Assembly: GCA_964347145.1 (NCBI GenBank)
Contig: CAYFXU010000001.1
Span: 1-54,602 of the forward strand
Source of the DNA: an uncultured Candidatus Bathyarchaeia archaeon
GTDB taxonomy: Archaea > Thermoproteota > Bathyarchaeia > Bathyarchaeales > Bathyarchaeaceae
Reading direction: 5' to 3'
Length of the DNA stretch: 54,602 nucleotides
In this document: one piece after another, positions 9,123 through 35,422 of the stretch
Position numbering within the stretch: the stretch's first letter is position 1
Layout of the letters: each line of letters opens with the position of its first letter
Made by a program: the position numbers and the translations under genes
Notes under the pieces: model-generated
The model's database searches: none
Told to the model about the DNA's origin: nothing
What the model saw: only the letters and a program-made list of their open reading frames with translations

Positions 9123-10143
9123 CGTGTTGGTAGTCGGCGGCGGCATCGCTGGAATGCACTGTTCGCTAGACTTGGCCAATATGGGCCATCGCGTTTATTT
9201 GATGGAAAAGGAAGGAGAAATAGGAGGCAATCTGAAGAATCTCTATGAAGTCTTTCCCACAAATGAGAAAGCAGAAAAGTTTCTCAGTAACTTCAAAGAA
9301 AAGGCAAAAACACAAAAGAACATATCAGTCCTAACGAACTCAACTCTCACTGCGTTTGAAGAAAAGATCGATGCTTTCAAAGTTACAATTAATAACTCCG
9401 GAAAGAGTGACACCTTCAATGTCGATGCAGTAGTTCTTGCAACGGGCTTCGTCCCCTATGACCCAAGCGAAAAGACAGAATACGGATACAATAGGTACAA
9501 GGATGTTGTGACTTCAATAGACTTAGAAAGAATGATGAAAGAAGGAAAGTTGGTAAGACGGTCGAACTCTGAGATACCAAGATCTGTAACATTTGTTCAA
9601 TGCGTTGGATTTAGAGACGCCAAGGCATATAGATACTGTTCCAATTTCTGTTGCACGTCAACTGTGAAGAATGCACTAATTATCAAAAGAGAATATCCCG
9701 CCGTAGACGTAAGTGTCATGTACATGGATATCAGAACCCCATACATCTATGAGAATCTATACTTGGATGCTAGAAACATCGGCGTGAAGTTTGTCAGGGG
9801 CAGACCCGCTGAGATTTTTGAAAAGTCCAACAAATTGGTTCTCAATTTCGAGGACACTTTAACCGGTGACACGCGCAGTATCGAATCTGAGTTGGTTGTT
9901 CTTTCCATTGGGGGAATTCCCACTCCAGAAACAAAGGAGCTAAGTCAAATGATGAAGGCATCATTGAGTGATACGGGATTTTTCAAGGTTCACAATGAAC
10001 CTTCCGGAACGAATGCAAATCGAATTTTTGTTGCTGGAGCCGCGTGTGGTCCAAAGGATATCGATTATTCTCTGTCACAGGCAGGTGCTGTCGCGGCTCA
10101 AATAAACAAACTTTGGGGGGGAAAACATGTTGCTGGTAAATAA
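9115..10143 (+). CDS. hdrA: Short HdrA-like FAD/[4Fe-4S] flavoprotein (thioredoxin-reductase-fold core only)
   Basis: VLVVGGGIAGMHCSLDLA Rossmann motif; QCVGFRD...YCSNFCC cluster motif; GAACGPKDI. Lacks the HdrA N-domain, both ferredoxin domains and the TFPTNDCxxC motif (has VFPTNEKAEKF instead). Confidence 0.85.
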   Translation: MASVLVVGGGIAGMHCSLDLANMGHRVYLMEKEGEIGGNLKNLYEVFPTNEKAEKFLSNFKEKAKTQKNISVLTNSTLTAFEEKIDAFKVTINNSGKSDTFNVDAVVLATGFVPYDPSEKTEYGYNRYKDVVTSIDLERMMKEGKLVRRSNSEIPRSVTFVQCVGFRDAKAYRYCSNFCCTSTVKNALIIKREYPAVDVSVMYMDIRTPYIYENLYLDARNIGVKFVRGRPAEIFEKSNKLVLNFEDTLTGDTRSIESELVVLSIGGIPTPETKELSQMMKASLSDTGFFKVHNEPSGTNANRIFVAGAACGPKDIDYSLSQAGAVAAQINKLWGGKHVAGK

Positions 10144-19574: not shown

Positions 19575-20441
19575 CTACTTGACGAAGTCGATTACGGGTT
19601 TCGCGGAAATCATGTTTTTGTGAAGACCAAGTTCCTTTGGAGGAATCCCGAATGAGAGCCCAATAAGTTGCGTGAAATAAAGAATGGGAATCTCACGTTT
19701 GCTATCTATTTTCGCCATGACTTTGTGTTGTAAGGTCTCAAGGGCCATATGGCAAAGCGGGCACGTAACAGTGATGCACTGTGCCTCACGTTCCTTCGCC
19801 TCGGCGATGATCTCTTTTGTCAATTCGAAAGGCGTTTTCTGATCTGTCATTAGCAAACCTCCGCCGCAACATTTTGTTTTGCCAAAGAACTCTAGGGGTT
19901 CTCCACCTAAGTTTAAAACGAGTCTGTCAAGTAGCTCCGGGTCGTCTGGATCATCAAAATTGAGGATTTTGGATGGTCTAACTATCAGGCAACCGTAGTA
20001 GGAAACAGTTTTTAACTCTTTAAGCGGTTTTTGTACGCGTTCTTTTATCTTCTGCAGGCCTATGTCACTCAAAAACAAATCTAGAAGATGCTTTATTTCT
20101 AACTCACGAAAATTGTAGTTTAAGAGTTGATTTATCCTTCTCCTCAATTCTCCATTTTGAGAGAGCCTCCACTGGACTTTGACAAGATTATTTAAACATG
20201 CATTGCATGTCACTACCAGCTTATCTGATTCTTCCGACGCAATCTTCAAATTTCTGGCCGGCAAAGCCAACGAGAGCAGGGGATTCAGTGAACTAACTTC
20301 TAGTGCACCGCAACAATTCCAGTCTTCAATTTCTACGAGTTCTATGTCGAGCCTCTCGCAAACGGCGTTTGCAGATAGTTGGTATTCTTTTGCAGAAGAT
20401 TCAAGTGAACATCCTGGGTAATAAGAAATTCTCACCTTCAC
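19575..20441 (-). CDS. hdrB: HdrB CCG-domain subunit
   Basis: DWNCCGALE and KTKCCGGGL CCG motifs. 288 aa. 4-nt overlap with hdrC. Confidence 0.9.
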   Translation of the reverse strand: MKVRISYYPGCSLESSAKEYQLSANAVCERLDIELVEIEDWNCCGALEVSSLNPLLSLALPARNLKIASEESDKLVVTCNACLNNLVKVQWRLSQNGELRRRINQLLNYNFRELEIKHLLDLFLSDIGLQKIKERVQKPLKELKTVSYYGCLIVRPSKILNFDDPDDPELLDRLVLNLGGEPLEFFGKTKCCGGGLLMTDQKTPFELTKEIIAEAKEREAQCITVTCPLCHMALETLQHKVMAKIDSKREIPILYFTQLIGLSFGIPPKELGLHKNMISAKPVIDFVK

Positions 20442-21022
20442 ATCACCTGAGTCTCTTTGAATAGCTTGTCTATCTCCTTGAGGTCTTTGACTTTTTTCGG
20501 AAACAGGCTTAGTTTTCTCTTGCGAACCATCTTTAATCCCAGTGGAAAATACGACAGCATGAACTTCAGGTCTTTCCTTTTCAGTATATATTTCGTCATC
20601 AGCCCAGTCTCGAATACTCTTCCGTAGTGTCTTATGCTGTCTGCGAAGGTTGAATCAAACAAGAACGTTGGGCCTTTGATCTCGATGTTTCCTTTTTCCA
20701 GTTCTCTTATTGCAAGAATCTTTAGTGCTTCAACAACCTCAGCAAACTTCACATTTTGAGGACACCGTTCATAGCAGGTGTGACAGTGTACGCACTTCCA
20801 TATGGTTTCACTGGAAAGTAGTTCTTTCTTCATCCCGTATAGAATCATTCTGATTATCTTTCTTGGGTTGTAATCATTGTCGATTCTCCTTACGGGGCAT
20901 GAAACTGCACAAATGCCACAGTGAAAACATTGCTTCACGTTCTCACCACCTGGTTGGCTAGAAACTTCATATTTGAAATTCGGATCGAGATCACCAAAAT
21001 CAACTGTCTGTTTCTTTTCCAT
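20438..21022 (-). CDS. hdrC: HdrC 2x[4Fe-4S] subunit
   Basis: CFHCGICAVSCP and CVHCHTCYERCP. ATG start 8 nt downstream of the conserved promoter/leader element. Confidence 0.9.
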   Translation of the reverse strand: MEKKQTVDFGDLDPNFKYEVSSQPGGENVKQCFHCGICAVSCPVRRIDNDYNPRKIIRMILYGMKKELLSSETIWKCVHCHTCYERCPQNVKFAEVVEALKILAIRELEKGNIEIKGPTFLFDSTFADSIRHYGRVFETGLMTKYILKRKDLKFMLSYFPLGLKMVRKRKLSLFPKKVKDLKEIDKLFKETQVM

Positions 21023-27456: not shown

Positions 27457-28143
27457 CTACTCTTCTAACACAAATTTGAAAGTCAAATTCGCCACGGCTA
27501 CAACAGAAAGCAGAAAGGCAAGGAGTAATCTTAATTCCGACATTACGTCTACTGAAGCGGCACTGTTTATGATTTTGACGGTCGCCAGAACCGACGGAAT
27601 AAGCACGGGGACGCAAACGGGAAAAAGTATAAAGGATAGAAGGAGCGTTTTTCCCTCTGAAAACATAACGAGACCGGAAACAAAGGAACCAGCTATTGAC
27701 AGATCAGTAACCCCGAGTATTAAGATAAGCAGAAAATCCAAAAGTCCTCCAGGGATCTTGAGATTCAAGAATACAAAAGAGAAGGGAAGCATCACTCCTT
27801 CCACAAGGAGAAGTAGCACCATAGCGTAGAGGATCTTTCCAAAAAGTATTGATGCCGGTGAGCATGGGAGGGTTTTGAGGCCTCCAAGAGTTCCTCGATC
27901 CATCTCTCTAGTGAAAGACGTCGTGAAGGTTAAAACGCTGGCGAAGAAAAGGATTATCCACAAAGCTGCTGAAGTCACCTCTGGACTAGCAGTTATGGCA
28001 CCACCCCAAGCAAAACTGCAAATGAGAATTGAACTCACTGAAAAGGTTAGAATAGATAGGATTTCATAGGCTCTCTTGAACTCCACCGCAAGATCTTTTG
28101 CAGCTATTCTAAAAGCCGCTGAGAAAAAACCCATGAGTGTCAC
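27457..28143 (-). CDS. ccmB: Haem exporter permease CcmB
   Basis: 228 aa with 6 hydrophobic helices. GTG start forms a GTGA overlap with the ccmA stop. Sits in the expected ccmAB position. Confidence 0.85.
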   Translation of the reverse strand: MTLMGFFSAAFRIAAKDLAVEFKRAYEILSILTFSVSSILICSFAWGGAITASPEVTSAALWIILFFASVLTFTTSFTREMDRGTLGGLKTLPCSPASILFGKILYAMVLLLLVEGVMLPFSFVFLNLKIPGGLLDFLLILILGVTDLSIAGSFVSGLVMFSEGKTLLLSFILFPVCVPVLIPSVLATVKIINSAASVDVMSELRLLLAFLLSVVAVANLTFKFVLEE

Positions 28144-28781
28144 CTGAAAAAGGTGTCTTGAACCAGTTTTCCTTTTTCAAGAAAAAGGCTCCTTTTGCAG
28201 AGTTGTTTTGCCCATTCAACTGAGTGGGATGACACTAACAGAGTTTTTCCTTTTAGAGTCTTGAGGTAACTCACTAAAAAGTTTCGGGTTTCTTCATCCA
28301 ATCCAGCGAAAAGTTCGTCAAGCAAAATTAGGTCTGGGTTATGAATTAATGCCCTGGCTATGTCTGCCCTTTTCCTCAAACCATACGACAATTGCTTCAC
28401 GGGAACCTTGCGCCAACTCTTCAAATTTAAGAAGTCAATTAATTCCGGGTCGTCTTGGTCCACAGAGAAAAGCCTTCCGTAAAACCGCAAATTTTCTTCG
28501 ACACTGAGTTCGTCATAGAGAAAACTTTCGTGAGCCACGAAGCCTATTCGCTTTCTCACAATCTCACCGTCCTTAAAGGCATTCCGCCCGTGAATCTTTA
28601 CTACGCCAGATGATGGAAGAACGTGCGTAGCTAGGATCCTCATCAACGTTGACTTTCCCGCTCCGTTAGGACCCAAGACAGCTACGGATTCGCCTTCATC
28701 GATTTCAATTGTGAACGGCTTCAGGGCCCATATATAACCGTACTTTTTTGAGACATTGAGAATTTCAACAGCGACAGTTAT
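28140..28781 (-). CDS. ccmA: ABC ATPase CcmA; the start is probably a non-canonical AUA
   Basis: Walker A GPNGAGKST, signature LSYGLRKR, Walker B LILLDE. The track ORF starts inside Walker A at a TTG. The in-frame upstream sequence ITVAVEILNVSKKYGYIWALKPFTIEIDEGESVAV is the conserved ABC N-terminus. It contains no ATG/GTG/TTG. GGAGG-N8-ATA is present at 28794..28779. Confidence 0.8.
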   Translation of the reverse strand: MTVAVEILNVSKKYGYIWALKPFTIEIDEGESVAVLGPNGAGKSTLMRILATHVLPSSGVVKIHGRNAFKDGEIVRKRIGFVAHESFLYDELSVEENLRFYGRLFSVDQDDPELIDFLNLKSWRKVPVKQLSYGLRKRADIARALIHNPDLILLDELFAGLDEETRNFLVSYLKTLKGKTLLVSSHSVEWAKQLCKRSLFLEKGKLVQDTFFR

Positions 28782-28813
28782 TGTCCCGTCCTCCTCGTCT
28801 ATGTGATTCGACT

Positions 28814-29296
28814 TTATTCATGCTTTCTTTTCAAGGTCATGGACACAACTGTGCCGACAATCGCTCCAGTTCCCAACAGGATGGCTGCCATAAACATGGG
28901 GTCGCCAAGCAACGATTTTCCTTCTCCCTCGTATTTGGAAGGGCATTTAACAAGCATATCGTATCCCTCAATGGTGCCTCGAGAAACGAGTTTTCCAATT
29001 ACAACGACCTGTTCGGCTTCTTGGAAGTTATCAGGCGGGCTTCCCGTGTAATTCACTTTGATCGCAGATTCTTCGTCAATGAGGTTGAAAACCATAGAGC
29101 GGTTTTTGCGGGAGACGGATCCGTTGGAAATTGTCCCCAACACTTGGATGTCTTCGTTGAGGTAAGTCGAGCTGTTTCTCACCACCTGAGACACCGTCAA
29201 GTAGGGGTTGATGTATGAAGAAAAGGCGTCGTATGCCAGTACACCACTGAGAACGATAAGAACGATGACGATGATGTAGGTGTACTTGATCTTGAT
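28814..29296 (-). CDS. ccmE: Haem chaperone CcmE, archaeal Cys variant; the start is probably a non-canonical AUC
   Basis: OB-fold region with CPSKY (28931..28945) in place of HxxxY. The required N-terminal TM anchor YTYIIVIVLIVLSGVLAY is in frame upstream of the track start. No canonical start codon precedes it. GGAGG-N8-ATC is present at 29309..29294. Confidence 0.8.
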   Translation of the reverse strand: MKIKYTYIIVIVLIVLSGVLAYDAFSSYINPYLTVSQVVRNSSTYLNEDIQVLGTISNGSVSRKNRSMVFNLIDEESAIKVNYTGSPPDNFQEAEQVVVIGKLVSRGTIEGYDMLVKCPSKYEGEGKSLLGDPMFMAAILLGTGAIVGTVVSMTLKRKHE

Positions 29297-29297
29297 C

Positions 29298-29426
29298 TCA
29301 AGTGCCTCCTTTTTCCAGGTCCACCAACCTTTTCCTGAGGTCAGAGAGTCGTCTGGTGAGCCAGATAGAAACGATTAAAATGGATCCCCAATAGATTGCT
29401 GAGACAAGGAAAAGCTCAAACTCCAA
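29298..29426 (-). CDS. ccmD: CcmD-like small membrane protein (not in ORF track)
   Basis: 42 codons, translated by hand: MEFELFLVSAIYWGSILIVSIWLTRRLSDLRKRLVDLEKGGT. One TM followed by a basic tail. TTG start preceded by GGAGG-N8. Lies exactly between ccmC and ccmE. Confidence 0.6.
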   Translation of the reverse strand: MEFELFLVSAIYWGSILIVSIWLTRRLSDLRKRLVDLEKGGT

Positions 29427-29430
29427 CCTT

Positions 29431-30111
29431 TCACCCTCCTCTTTCGTAGGCTAAGACATCAACTCGTTTTTGAAGAGACCGAACATCATGAGTCATCCTT
29501 AACAGATATATGTAAACGAGAGAACTCGCGATGAGATTTAAAAGTAGTGTTTCCATCATCGGCGGAGTTATTGAAAGGTCCAGGCTCAATCCTCCAGTTA
29601 CAGGAAGAGGATGAAGCGACTGCCAAAGTCTAATGGACAAATAGCTCAGTGGAATCGTGGAGAAGGCAAGAACATTATATACTGCACTAGTTAACGCCCG
29701 CTTTTCAACGTTTCCGATAGAGAGTCGCAGGGAAACATAGCCCATGTAGGCTATCCACAAGATAAGCGTGGTTGTCTCCCGCGGATCCCAATTCCAGTAC
29801 ACTCCCCAAGCAACGTTTGCCCAAATGGAACCCGTTATCAACGCCACGACTCCGTACAAAAGCCCCAAAATGGCTGAAACTTCCGCCAAACTGTCATATG
29901 CGATTTTTCTTTTGACCAAAAACAATATGCTTGCCAGCAATGAAACGCCCAGTGTGAGATAACAGACCCAAGCGGCGGGTGTGTGAATGTAGAAGATTCG
30001 ATAAAGATCTCCCATAGTCTTCTCTGGAGGAGCAGCAACAAAAGCAGCGTAACTCGCAATAATGTTTACGACCACGGTAATAGAAAGGTAAATATAATCC
30101 CGGATTATCAT
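29431..30111 (-). CDS. ccmC: Haem lyase/exporter subunit CcmC
   Basis: Trp-rich WWD motif WGVYWNWDPRETTTLILW. 226 aa, polytopic. Confidence 0.9.
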   Translation of the reverse strand: MIIRDYIYLSITVVVNIIASYAAFVAAPPEKTMGDLYRIFYIHTPAAWVCYLTLGVSLLASILFLVKRKIAYDSLAEVSAILGLLYGVVALITGSIWANVAWGVYWNWDPRETTTLILWIAYMGYVSLRLSIGNVEKRALTSAVYNVLAFSTIPLSYLSIRLWQSLHPLPVTGGLSLDLSITPPMMETLLLNLIASSLVYIYLLRMTHDVRSLQKRVDVLAYERGG

Positions 30112-30214
30112 TAACCTCTCCTCGCTTCACAGAAATATTCCAATCATAACTATAAAAAGTTTAAAAACAACTTGACGGATTGCAAGGCAACTCGATCGTT
30201 TGAGGGAAACCAGG

Positions 30215-32176
30215 ATGGAAACCGAAGAACTGTTCCTAGTCTTCGCTTGCCTTCTACTATTCTTCGACTTGATTCAATCGTCAAAGGTCAAGCCCCGTGA
30301 GAGGAAGAAACTTGAATACGGATTCTATGCGTCAATTCTAGCATGTGGGCTTATCGTCGCCTCGTATTTAATGCTTTTGCAGGCCTTCTTGAAGGACGAT
30401 TTTACATTAAGAGTAGTCTACTCGTATAGTTCGTCGAGCTTGCCGACCTCCTTCAAGGTTTATGCCACGTGGGCTGGCATGAGCGGTTCAATGCTCTTCT
30501 TGACGTTTCTTATGACCATCGTATACTTTGCCTACAGGTTCAAGACGTATGAGGAAAGCGGTTCTTTTCGATTAATCGCCTACAGGATACTGGATTTCAT
30601 TCTCATCTTTTTCTTGCTCCTCACCTTGATAAACAGTCCGTTTGAACGATTTCAGGGAGCGCCAATGGATGGCCAGGGTCTTAATCCCTTGTTGCAAACC
30701 TTCTGGATGTTTATCCATCCACCTGTAGTATTCTCGGGTTACGTCCTTGTCACTCTTGCATTTGCTCTGGTTCTGGCGAGAATGAAGACTGGAGAAAAAG
30801 TGGAAGGTACGTTGCTAAAGCTTTCTCTCCAAGGAGCGTGGTTGCTCTTGACTCTTGGAAACGCCATTGGAGGTTTGTGGGCTTATGAGGTGTTGGGTTG
30901 GGGCGGATACTGGGCTTGGGACCCAGTTGAAACCGCGTCGCTATTGCCGTGGTTGGCTCTCACGGCGTATTTTCACCTTGGTCCAGTCTCCAAAAAGGGT
31001 AAAAGCCTAGCGGGTGAATTCATGATTCTTTTAACTTTTGCAACTGTGATTTTCACCACTGCTTTGACTCGAGGCGGGTTGGCCGTGTCGGTTCACGCGT
31101 TCGGAGCCTCGCCCCTTGGACCGGCTCTCCTTCTTCTGACTCTCGTCATGATTGTCTATTTCTTCTATTTAAAGAGAGGAATAGAGAAGCCGCTATTTTC
31201 TTTAGAGGTTGAAAAATCTTCCCTTTACTCGGTGTCTTTTTTCGCAGGGTATTGGTCTTTAATCTTTGTTTTCCTCATTTGTTTCTGGGGGGTAGCCTTC
31301 CCAGTTATTGGGGGAATCTTTCTGGAAAATCCTATGGCCACTGGCATGGACTTCTATAACAACTGGAATTTTCCCTTTGTATTGGTCTTTGTTGCAGCGT
31401 TGGTTGGCTGCAGCATGTACGAGAGAATAGGTTTCAAGGAGTTTGCGATACTACTGGCCGGTGCGTTGGGCGCCGGCGCCGTATTAGTTCAGATGCAGTG
31501 GCCAACACCCCATATATTGGCGAATCTAGGGATTCCACTTTTGATTGTTTCGCTGTTTGCTGTAGTATACCGGCTTGTTCAGGTTCTTGGGAGGAAGAAA
31601 AGATCTCTTCGTCTGTTCGGGAGAAGTCTTCTCCACTTTGCGATCATAATCACGTTGATAGGTGTCTTCTTCAGCTCCACCGCCAAGCTTGTAAGCGGCG
31701 ATCTTCCGGCGAAACCAAACACCACCATAGAAACGTTAGGGCTAACAATAGAGTTGAAGAACTTCACCGTTCACAACGGCACTGGAAACGTTCACTCCAT
31801 GGATTTCGGACGGTGCATCCCAGAACATTCAGCGTTGAAAATGGATGTCACAATTAAACAGGCAGGAAACATCTACCATGGAGCTCTGTGGATTCGCTAT
31901 TACCCCGTTTATGGAATCGTATCTGGACCGTCGATAATTGGCACTTCGACAGGAGATATATACATTCGCATGCATCACACAGAATCAATGTATAACTCGC
32001 TGGTGCAAGCTCTTGGTGGTGAGAAAGTTCTTCCTGAGGATTTGGTGGTCAGCGTGGAGAGGATTCCCATGGTTCATCTTGTTTGGGCCGGAGTAACACT
32101 GCTTAGCATCGGGATGGCTATGCCATTGATTAAGGAGATCGTGAGACCGATGCCCAAAAAAGCTAGCAGTGATTGA
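30215..32176 (+). CDS. ccmF: Cytochrome c haem lyase CcmF
   Basis: WWD motif GGLWAYEVLGWGGYWAWDPVETASLLPW. About 650 aa, polytopic. I prefer ATG 30215 (GAGGGA 7 nt upstream) over the track TTG at 30200. Confidence 0.9.
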   Translation: METEELFLVFACLLLFFDLIQSSKVKPRERKKLEYGFYASILACGLIVASYLMLLQAFLKDDFTLRVVYSYSSSSLPTSFKVYATWAGMSGSMLFLTFLMTIVYFAYRFKTYEESGSFRLIAYRILDFILIFFLLLTLINSPFERFQGAPMDGQGLNPLLQTFWMFIHPPVVFSGYVLVTLAFALVLARMKTGEKVEGTLLKLSLQGAWLLLTLGNAIGGLWAYEVLGWGGYWAWDPVETASLLPWLALTAYFHLGPVSKKGKSLAGEFMILLTFATVIFTTALTRGGLAVSVHAFGASPLGPALLLLTLVMIVYFFYLKRGIEKPLFSLEVEKSSLYSVSFFAGYWSLIFVFLICFWGVAFPVIGGIFLENPMATGMDFYNNWNFPFVLVFVAALVGCSMYERIGFKEFAILLAGALGAGAVLVQMQWPTPHILANLGIPLLIVSLFAVVYRLVQVLGRKKRSLRLFGRSLLHFAIIITLIGVFFSSTAKLVSGDLPAKPNTTIETLGLTIELKNFTVHNGTGNVHSMDFGRCIPEHSALKMDVTIKQAGNIYHGALWIRYYPVYGIVSGPSIIGTSTGDIYIRMHHTESMYNSLVQALGGEKVLPEDLVVSVERIPMVHLVWAGVTLLSIGMAMPLIKEIVRPMPKKASSD

Positions 32177-34777: not shown

Positions 34778-35422
34778 GTGGTTGATCTCGGAGCCCTACA
34801 CTCTATGCTAATAGAAATGCACGGAGGAATGCTCACACTGGCAGCTGTCAGCACTCTTGCAATGGTTGTAGCCCGACTTCACCGAAGGTTAAGAAGAACC
34901 AGCAAATGGTACGGCGTTTTTTGGCCTTTAGATTCGTTGATCGAGAAATTAGCCCGATACACAGAACCGACAGCCTATGTGGCGGCAATAGGCGGAGTTG
35001 TCGGCCTTGTGGTGTCTGCAATCGTTGGTTTTTATGTCTGGCCTACTGAAACTCTCATGAACTCTTCTCTGGGATTAACCAAAGTCATGTTCTCCATTTT
35101 CGCCACAGAACTTTGGATCCTCTTCGTTGTAATTAGATCAAAATATAGCGAAGACTTGTGGAAAAATGGTGCATTAGCGACCGTATACGTGTTCGCAGGA
35201 TTTGCTGGGTTCTTTTTCACGGTTCTAACAGGAAGCTTTGGGGGGCACATGGCAGGTAAAGGAAGTGTCCTTGATCCGGTTTATGAGCTTCTTAACGTAG
35301 ATCCAGAAGCTTTTTGGGTCATTGGGTTTGACATGGTGCCCGTGCTAATCGCCGTTGCCTTCATTGAGATAGTCATCTTTTTCGCTCTCTTCCTACGTTT
35401 TCGATCGCGAGCGAGAGCTTGA
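34778..35422 (+). CDS. Five-TM membrane protein, DUF2231-like
   Basis: GTG start preceded by GGAGG-N8. His-containing first helix region (ALHSMLIEMHGGML) and GSFGGHMAGKG loop resemble DUF2231 proteins. The assignment is by eye only. Confidence 0.6.
   Translation: MVDLGALHSMLIEMHGGMLTLAAVSTLAMVVARLHRRLRRTSKWYGVFWPLDSLIEKLARYTEPTAYVAAIGGVVGLVVSAIVGFYVWPTETLMNSSLGLTKVMFSIFATELWILFVVIRSKYSEDLWKNGALATVYVFAGFAGFFFTVLTGSFGGHMAGKGSVLDPVYELLNVDPEAFWVIGFDMVPVLIAVAFIEIVIFFALFLRFRSRARA

Follow-up and report, generated by a model that had tools for sequence, protein, structure and literature searches.

Candidate near-cognate AUC and AUA starts for ccmE and ccmA in the cytochrome c maturation cluster of an uncultured Bathyarchaeia archaeon

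Where does translation begin in two genes of a cytochrome c maturation (ccm) cluster that have no canonical start codon ahead of their conserved N-termini? The question is raised by ccmE and ccmA in a 54,602-nt stretch of DNA from an uncultured Candidatus Bathyarchaeia archaeon (contig CAYFXU010000001.1, positions 1 to 54,602; hereafter the window), whose metagenome-assembled genome (MAG; G000) comprises 2.14 Mb in 224 contigs, with 5.7% contamination. Both genes lie on the minus strand, ccmE at 28814..29296 (160 codons) and ccmA, which encodes an ABC ATPase, at 28140..28781 (213 codons). The frame of ccmE is closed upstream by a TAA stop codon (29377-29375) and is open from 29374; none of the codons ATG, GTG and TTG occurs in it before position 29200, where a TTG (29198..29200) opens a shorter open reading frame (ORF, 28814..29200). 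This TTG lies downstream of the transmembrane (TM) anchor and corresponds to Leu33 of the conserved NPYL motif. The frame of ccmA follows a TGA (28820-28818), is open from 28817 and contains no canonical codon until 28676, the first base of a TTG (28674..28676) located directly ahead of Walker A (ORF 28140..28676). The first-pass annotation had reported this absence of ATG, GTG and TTG between the in-frame stops and the conserved N-termini of both genes, and direct reading confirms all of its coordinates. It is probable (roughly 0.8) that ccmE and ccmA are intact, functional genes whose translation is initiated at two near-cognate codons, AUC (29296-29294) for the former and AUA (28781-28779) for the latter.

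In each gene, the proposed start, an AUH codon (H being A, C or U), is preceded by a GGAGG Shine-Dalgarno motif. For ccmE, GGAGG at 29305..29309 (minus strand), within the coding sequence of the upstream ccmD-like gene, is separated by the 8-nt spacer CACTTGAG from the ATC at 29294..29296; for ccmA, GGAGG at 28790..28794 (minus strand) is separated by the 8-nt spacer ACGGGACA from the ATA at 28779..28781. At the first junction, the ccmD-like gene ends with GGA GGC ACT TGA, followed by a single G and then by ATC AAG ATC AAG TAC, which reads as (I)KIKYTYIIVIVLIVLSGVLAYDAF. The exact distance of 8 nt, already pointed out in the first-pass annotation, holds for both genes and falls within the range preferred by this genome, in which canonical starts behind GGAGG show a spacing peak at 7-8 nt. 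The same GGAGG-N8 arrangement, also claimed earlier, is indeed present ahead of the ccmD TTG (29439-29424) and of the GTG at 34778 that opens a DUF2231-like gene. Throughout the whole genome, GGAGG occurs at about 4300 sites in the 4.28 Mb of both strands, which corresponds to about one per kb of strand, and the chance of finding it 7-8 nt ahead of any given codon is about 0.2%. Taking into account this frequency and the preferred spacing, two chance placements are very unlikely.

The two start regions were compared across about 50 ccm loci, obtained from searches of family and order genomes, species-representative genomes and metagenome contigs and aligned at their junctions. A search for related loci with a single CcmE protein query found none; alignment-based scans did yield loci. 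Such an alignment had been proposed as a way to learn whether the AUH codons are conserved or replaced by ATG: the ATC and ATA of the window share a column with the ATG, GTG and TTG of other lineages, and AUH is kept within clades. For ccmE, all nine members of the window's clade (the window, L009, L089-L093, L095 and L129; 69-85% protein identity) carry ATY (Y being C or T), with ATC in the window, L090, L091, L092 and L095 and ATT in L009, L089, L093 and L129; the G-rich Shine-Dalgarno motif is retained in every one of them. A second well-supported clade of five loci (L013, L105, L106, L012 and L104) has ATC as well, here directly after the TGA of ccmD, and its L012/L104 sub-branch shows an additional GTG two codons after the ATC, overlapping the ccmD stop. 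Elsewhere the column is occupied by ATG (about 20 loci) or by GTG (L101). As both clades belong to an unresolved polytomy in the tree, two independent origins of the ccmE ATY are not proven.

At the ccmA column, eight loci carry ATH: ATA is found in the window, L009, L089, L091, L093 and L014, ATC in L092 and ATT in L096. The column reads ATG in L090, L013, L012, L015, L098 and L106, and TTG in L010, L011, L094, L097, L100 and L101; in the tree, the ATG-bearing L090 is nested within the ATA clade. The L014 gene was compared at its start alone (GGAGG-GCAGGA-ATA-ATC). In this locus (L005/L014; the single-contig genome CP070679.1, Bathyarchaeota bin695), Walker A of ccmA is followed by a run of N and then by unrelated sequence. 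The assemblies of the relatives are independent, originating from several metagenomes and MAGs, and the recurrence of the same codons in them argues against an error specific to the window. The first-pass annotation had considered random sequencing error unlikely on the ground that two adjacent genes show the same pattern, a conclusion that stands, with its argument now superseded by the stronger evidence from independent assemblies. Judged from these alignments, the AUH trait of ccmE and ccmA is evolutionarily stable.

The stretches preceding the canonical codons carry the signature of coding sequence. Within the clade, the 32 codons of ccmE before its first canonical codon show 9, 7 and 27 variable columns at codon positions 1, 2 and 3, respectively, and the corresponding 35 codons of ccmA show 14, 10 and 28. 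In every comparison with the window, synonymous differences equal or exceed non-synonymous ones in both N-terminal stretches. Since variation is found mainly at third codon positions, both stretches are most likely translated. The resulting N-termini also fit solved homologues: in CcmA, residue 4 is matched to residue 3 in NosF (7o0y_B) and residue 7 to residue 8 in 4yer_A; in CcmE, residue 24 is matched to residue 29 in the E. coli protein (8ce8_E), and the two CcmE proteins are 160 and 159 aa long, respectively. The N-terminal hydrophobic helix of CcmE is conserved. The earlier claim that CcmE needs its TM anchor and CcmA the approximately 35-aa region ahead of Walker A is thus borne out both by protein-level constraint and by the fit to solved structures.

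Upstream of the proposed starts, the pattern is different. The sequence preceding the ATY of ccmE is that of ccmD, read in another frame. The ccmE-ccmA spacer contains indels of 1, 2, 6 and 14 nt among close relatives, with stop codons at varying distances, which indicates that no constant coding frame extends upstream of the ccmA ATH. The block RGGRGGAC-NNN-ACA-ATH immediately before ccmA is constant in length among relatives, the indels being located in the rest of the spacer.

In the proposed mechanism, the ordinary initiator Met-tRNA would pair with the first two bases of AUH, the third-base mismatch being tolerated, and both CcmE and CcmA would begin with Met. The GGAGG located 8 nt upstream would set the AUH codon in the P site. 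For ccmE, ribosomes terminating at the ccmD stop probably reinitiate (termination-reinitiation coupling), because this stop lies just 1 nt upstream, and initiation at ccmA probably depends on its own Shine-Dalgarno, owing to the 32-nt gap after the ccmE stop. In Haloferax, a native gene pair separated by +1 nt is coupled, and a distance of at least 22 nt abolishes coupling (PMC10666635; PMC6728339). Further downstream, ccmB would be coupled to ccmA through their GTGA overlap. Being weak, the start codons would probably reduce or fine-tune the amounts of CcmE and CcmAB ATPase that are made, a purpose that is speculative.

Several points weigh against AUH initiation in ccmE and ccmA. The Sulfolobus factor aIF1 discriminates against AUU in vitro (PMC4705826), and archaeal starts are listed in reviews as AUG, GUG and UUG only (PMC7531240). 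Furthermore, in start-less leaders across the genome, no enrichment of Shine-Dalgarno motifs is found before ATH codons, with frequencies of 2.1% for ATA, 1.9% for ATC and 2.6% for ATT against a mean of 2.0%. Consequently, a general usage of AUH in this genome is rejected, and the AUH starts would be rare exceptions rather than a general rule. At ccmA, an in-frame ATG, TTG or GTG is present 10-14 codons upstream of the ATH in L009, L092 and L093 and could act as an alternative start there; the window, L089, L091, L014 and L096 have no such in-frame canonical codon upstream. Finally, another ATC stands at codon 3 of ccmE, and only homology and spacing decide which codon is the exact start.

Among the other explanations, recoding survives best, improbable as it is. 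Ribosomes would either pass the ccmD stop, by a +1 frameshift or by readthrough, and make a CcmD-CcmE fusion, or shift frame from a short ATG-initiated ORF into ccmA. Two off-frame codons, absent from the first-pass annotation, were examined in this respect: a TTG at 29299..29301 (minus strand), which overlaps the ccmD TGA, and an ATG at 28819..28821 (minus strand), which overlaps the end of ccmE (ATGAATAA) and is the first codon of an 18-codon ORF that runs in the -1 frame with respect to ccmA. The overlap of this ATG with the ccmE stop is a typical -8 arrangement, and the succession of GGAGG, NNT TGA and G at the ccmD stop has a layout that we take to resemble the +1 frameshift site of RF2. 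Nevertheless, the codon before the ccmD stop is variable (ACT, AGT, AAT, GTT), which means that there is no conserved slippery codon, and the distance from the stop to ATY is 1 nt in the window's clade vs 0 nt in the second clade. There, the TGA is in frame with the ATC, so readthrough and not a frameshift would be needed. Relatives with ATG or GTG possess separate genes with ATGA or GTGA overlaps. With neither a slippery codon nor a fixed frame relation between the ORFs, an RF2/prfB-type +1 frameshift or a readthrough fusion is rejected. The off-frame TTG is likewise discarded as a frameshift origin: the ccmD stop of L093 is TAA (GTTAAGATT) and no TTG is formed, which identifies the TTG of the window as a mere by-product of TGA. 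An upstream ORF feeding ccmA from the ATG at 28821 is rejected on comparative grounds, as its frame relation to ccmA is not conserved but shifts among relatives through indels of 1-14 nt.

It is very unlikely that the internal TTGs (29200 and 28676) are the true starts, leaving CcmE without its N-terminal anchor and CcmA beginning at Walker A. They are the first canonical codons and the choice of gene finders, and the Pfam CcmE domain itself begins only at about residue 31. However, the upstream stretches (32 and 35 codons) are conserved at the protein level and change mainly at the third position, and the TTG of ccmE behaves as an ordinary Leu codon, being replaced by CTA or CTT in L009, L092 and L129. 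No Shine-Dalgarno is present in the window sequence ahead of either TTG, and the absence of such a motif at both sites speaks against initiation there. Moreover, the N-terminal parts are required in solved homologues: ccmA would lose 35 conserved residues, including strands and the VSKKYG aromatic loop, and the OB domain of an anchorless CcmE would, according to the topology of CcmE, presumably remain cytoplasmic.

A non-standard decoding is hardly more credible, whether through RNA editing that restores AUG or through an initiator tRNA dedicated to AUH and ACG. The occurrence of several different near-cognate codons in the lineage would agree with it, as would the fact that no typical initiator tRNA was recovered from the MAG. 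The tRNA set was searched with aragorn, with and without introns, with anticodon-stem patterns and with Rfam RF00005; an initiator-type tRNA (A1-U72, GGG/CCC anticodon stem) was not found in this incomplete set of 29-36 genes, and because of that incompleteness its absence is uninformative. On the other hand, one unspliced tRNA-Ile(GAU) is present (contig C187) and has no initiator-like stem, and the three different third bases of the starts would require different edits. We know of no archaeal precedent for RNA editing, or for a dedicated initiator tRNA, at such starts.

Gene decay, in which the loss of start codons would mark the early pseudogenization of a patchy, possibly transferred ccm cluster, is similarly doubtful to a high degree. 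The cluster is indeed rare (5 of 60 genomes in the family, 8 of 401 in the order), but the frames are intact, purifying selection is strong across a clade whose members keep ATH despite divergence to about 70% identity, and several c-type cytochrome genes are located next to the cluster. Least probable of all is an assembly or sequencing error in the MAG, in which case the true codons would be ATG, or an indel would mask a canonical start, for example the off-frame TTG (29301) or ATG (28821): the fragmentation into 224 contigs, the 5.7% contamination, the presence of these codons just upstream and a singleton ATA start in panE of the same genome (see below) would be compatible with it, but the same ATY and ATA recur in at least eight independent clade assemblies, reading frames are identical, the interval from the Shine-Dalgarno to the coding region is free of indels, and the off-frame TTG is absent from L093.

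AUH initiation in ccmE and ccmA does not stand alone. Two whole-genome scans were performed, one anchored on Shine-Dalgarno motifs and one based on dicodon coding potential, and the genes found were compared across 60 family genomes. ccmE and ccmA are among the top-ranked start-less genes. In start-less leaders genome-wide, ACG is the codon with the highest frequency of an upstream Shine-Dalgarno (5.8%), and three genes on the minus strand of their contigs have ACG in their start column. The first is hflX (contig C6, first base of ACG at 9903; L162, orthologues L163-L191), where 27 of 30 family genomes have ACG and the other three ATG; no canonical start precedes its GTP-bdg_N domain, the ACG lies 10 nt behind GGAGG, and in five genomes a stop codon is found one codon upstream of it. 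The second is the main tfb gene, encoding transcription factor B (C110, 5678; L237, orthologues L238-L266), in which ACG occurs in 23 of 30 genomes, ATG in two and GTG in two; in the window's genome an in-frame TAA stands one codon upstream. The third is the cell division gene cdvA (C72, 1307; L132, orthologues L133-L161), which reads GGAGGTGA-NNNN-ACG. Here ACG is found in six genomes of six genera, the other family members having GTG or ATG; all starts lie behind GGAGGTGA, one of them with AGAGGTGA, and the ACG is preceded by TAA in most cases, three relatives included.

For panE/apbA, which encodes ketopantoate reductase (C12, minus strand, first base of ATA at 9455; L192, orthologues L193-L206), ATA is observed in the window's genome only, all orthologues having ATG or TTG in the start column. 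The first canonical start is located 91 codons downstream, beyond the GxGxxG motif. The window's genome has GGAGG at this position vs GGAAG plus ATG in the nearest relative, and the GGAGG may represent a compensating, stronger ribosome-binding site; as the ATA is a singleton, an error at this position is not excluded. In all four products (hflX, tfb, cdvA, panE), the Pfam domains begin upstream of any canonical start. A gene for a PIN-domain protein (C154, minus strand, first base at 2028) may start at CTG, 6 nt behind GAGGTGA: its PIN_6 domain (profile 1-87) begins at residue 6 after the CTG, and no canonical start occurs until 40 codons downstream. In the methionyl-tRNA synthetase gene (C20, minus strand, around 6873; L207, orthologues L208-L236), most of the family lacks an ATG, GTG or TTG ahead of the HIGH motif; after a conserved TGGAGGTG come ATT/GTT at +3 nt and, at +6 nt, GCG/GCA/ACG, or ATG or GTG in three genomes.

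The scans also returned candidates that do not hold. The HdrB-like gene of the window (20400-20654, minus strand), flagged by coding potential at 20615 with a 58-codon start-less leader, is a false hit, as a GTG at codon 71/73 (VKVRISYYPGCS) fits the N-terminus of its family. An AAG candidate on C23 has a fitting ATG, and those on C17, C104 and others run into N-masked stretches. Separately, a large secreted or anchored protein with a right-handed beta-helix and PKD-like repeats is encoded on the plus strand of C6; its signal peptide lies upstream of the first canonical start, and its candidate start is an ACG (first base 2134) or an AAG behind GGAGG.

On the basis of these start columns, it is reasonably probable, with less assurance than for the two ccm genes themselves, that this Bathyarchaeia family tolerates and stably keeps near-cognate codons behind Shine-Dalgarno motifs as the sole starts of conserved, even essential genes: ACG in the main tfb, in hflX and, for several genera, in cdvA, AUH in ccmE, ccmA and panE, and possibly CUG in the PIN-domain gene. 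The near-cognate start columns of hflX, tfb, cdvA and panE would make the ccm AUH starts one face of a lineage-level tolerance. Moreover, the AUH columns are long-lived, and the same family has ACG in tfb, hflX and cdvA; together, these columns suggest that the lineage regularly uses near-cognate initiation, under selection, to set expression.

In the cluster, ccmC, ccmD, ccmE, ccmA and ccmB are co-directional on the minus strand, ccmF is divergent on the plus strand, and several c-type cytochrome genes adjoin the cluster. The row opens with ccmC (29431..30111), which starts at ATG and matches Cytochrom_C_asm (Pfam PF01578, E 2e-31). It is followed by the ccmD-like gene (29298..29426, 42 codons), which starts at a TTG behind GGAGG-N8 and ends with a TGA at 29300-29298, 1 nt ahead of the ccmE ATC; its product has no match in Pfam, and its position and layout of one TM helix plus a basic tail are kept across orthologous loci. 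CcmE (PF03100, E 2e-22) consists of an N-terminal TM anchor, an OB fold, the CPSKY haem site and a C-terminal TM helix. Its CxxxY haem-binding motif is present, with C118, S120 and Y122 invariant in the alignment (A1). CcmA (PF00005, E 1e-28) has the Walker A sequence GPNGAGKST, and its stop overlaps by 4 nt (GTGA) the GTG start of ccmB (27457..28143, minus strand; PF03379, E 5.5e-20). The CcmA ATPase and its membrane partners CcmB and CcmC stand together in one cluster, as in the archaeal variant of system I. The ccm cluster as a whole (window 27457-32176) has a patchy distribution: of 60 genomes in the family 5 carry it, and of 401 genomes sampled in the order, 8. This pattern suggests that these archaea either acquired cytochrome c maturation by transfer or lost it repeatedly.

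The position of the starts matters for how such genomes are read. Automatic annotation truncates both proteins, depriving CcmE of its membrane anchor and CcmA of 35 residues, and such truncated calls could make the ccm system look defective, along with the potential of these sediment archaea for cytochrome-based electron transfer. Standard gene finders miss near-cognate starts, and if the family-wide tolerance is real, genes of this kind would be systematically truncated by gene callers. In that case, the start-codon check of these archaea would be relaxed or differently tuned, at the level of aIF1, aIF2 or the initiator tRNA, and ACG would be a regular archaeal start codon. The ccm start regions offer concrete sequences on which the stringency of start-codon choice can be tested in an initiation system akin to the eukaryotic one.

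With respect to known systems, ATT, ATC and ATA are rare alternative starts in NCBI translation table 11, in which ACG is not listed, and the E. coli gene pcnB starts at AUU. The same codon opens E. coli infC, the gene for IF3 (PMC4705826). Similarly to these two, the ccm starts are third-position near-cognates of AUG behind a Shine-Dalgarno, presumably read by the normal initiator tRNA, and a lowered expression would be expected. In contrast to the bacterial genes, the host is an archaeon that initiates with aIF1, aIF1A and aIF2, and the ccm case comprises two adjacent genes with a trait conserved across a clade. Nor is there any sign that the ccm products regulate their own starts, as IF3 does; to our knowledge, CcmE and CcmA have no role in translation, and autoregulation of the infC type is not expected to apply.

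In eukaryotes, near-cognate initiation occurs at CUG, ACG, AUA, AUC and AUU, with its stringency set by eIF1. The initiation factors are homologous (aIF1/eIF1 and aIF2/eIF2), and the same set of codons is met in this lineage. Unlike the eukaryotic sites, the ccm starts would be positioned by a Shine-Dalgarno and by coupling rather than by scanning. Ribosome profiling of Haloferax volcanii gave near-cognate candidate sites, which were set aside as possible false positives (PMC7261190). Unlike these and the eukaryotic sites, which are alternative starts or starts of upstream ORFs, the ccm codons would be the sole starts of the main conserved proteins. For ACG as an archaeal start codon, a full-text literature search found nothing relevant. 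On comparative sequence evidence, the AUH starts of ccmE and ccmA are a comparatively well-supported case of a known feature, in a domain in which such starts lack experimental establishment.

The arrangement of the genes agrees with archaeal termination-reinitiation (Huber et al. 2019, PMC6728339; PMC10666635), with ccmD and ccmE 1 nt apart and ccmA and ccmB joined by GTGA, as is typical for subunits of one complex. It differs in that the restart codons in published archaeal coupling are ATG, GTG and TTG, whereas the candidate restart codon of ccmE is AUC or AUU, and in that the 32-nt gap before ccmA exceeds the working distance in Haloferax. System I of the archaeal/Desulfovibrio type is characterized by CxxxY in place of HxxxY in CcmE and by the lack of CcmH. 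The cluster described here conforms to this type, with ccmC, ccmD, ccmE, ccmA and ccmB in a row, ccmF divergent and CPSKY in CcmE; its proteins are no different, and the peculiarity is confined to the starts of two genes.

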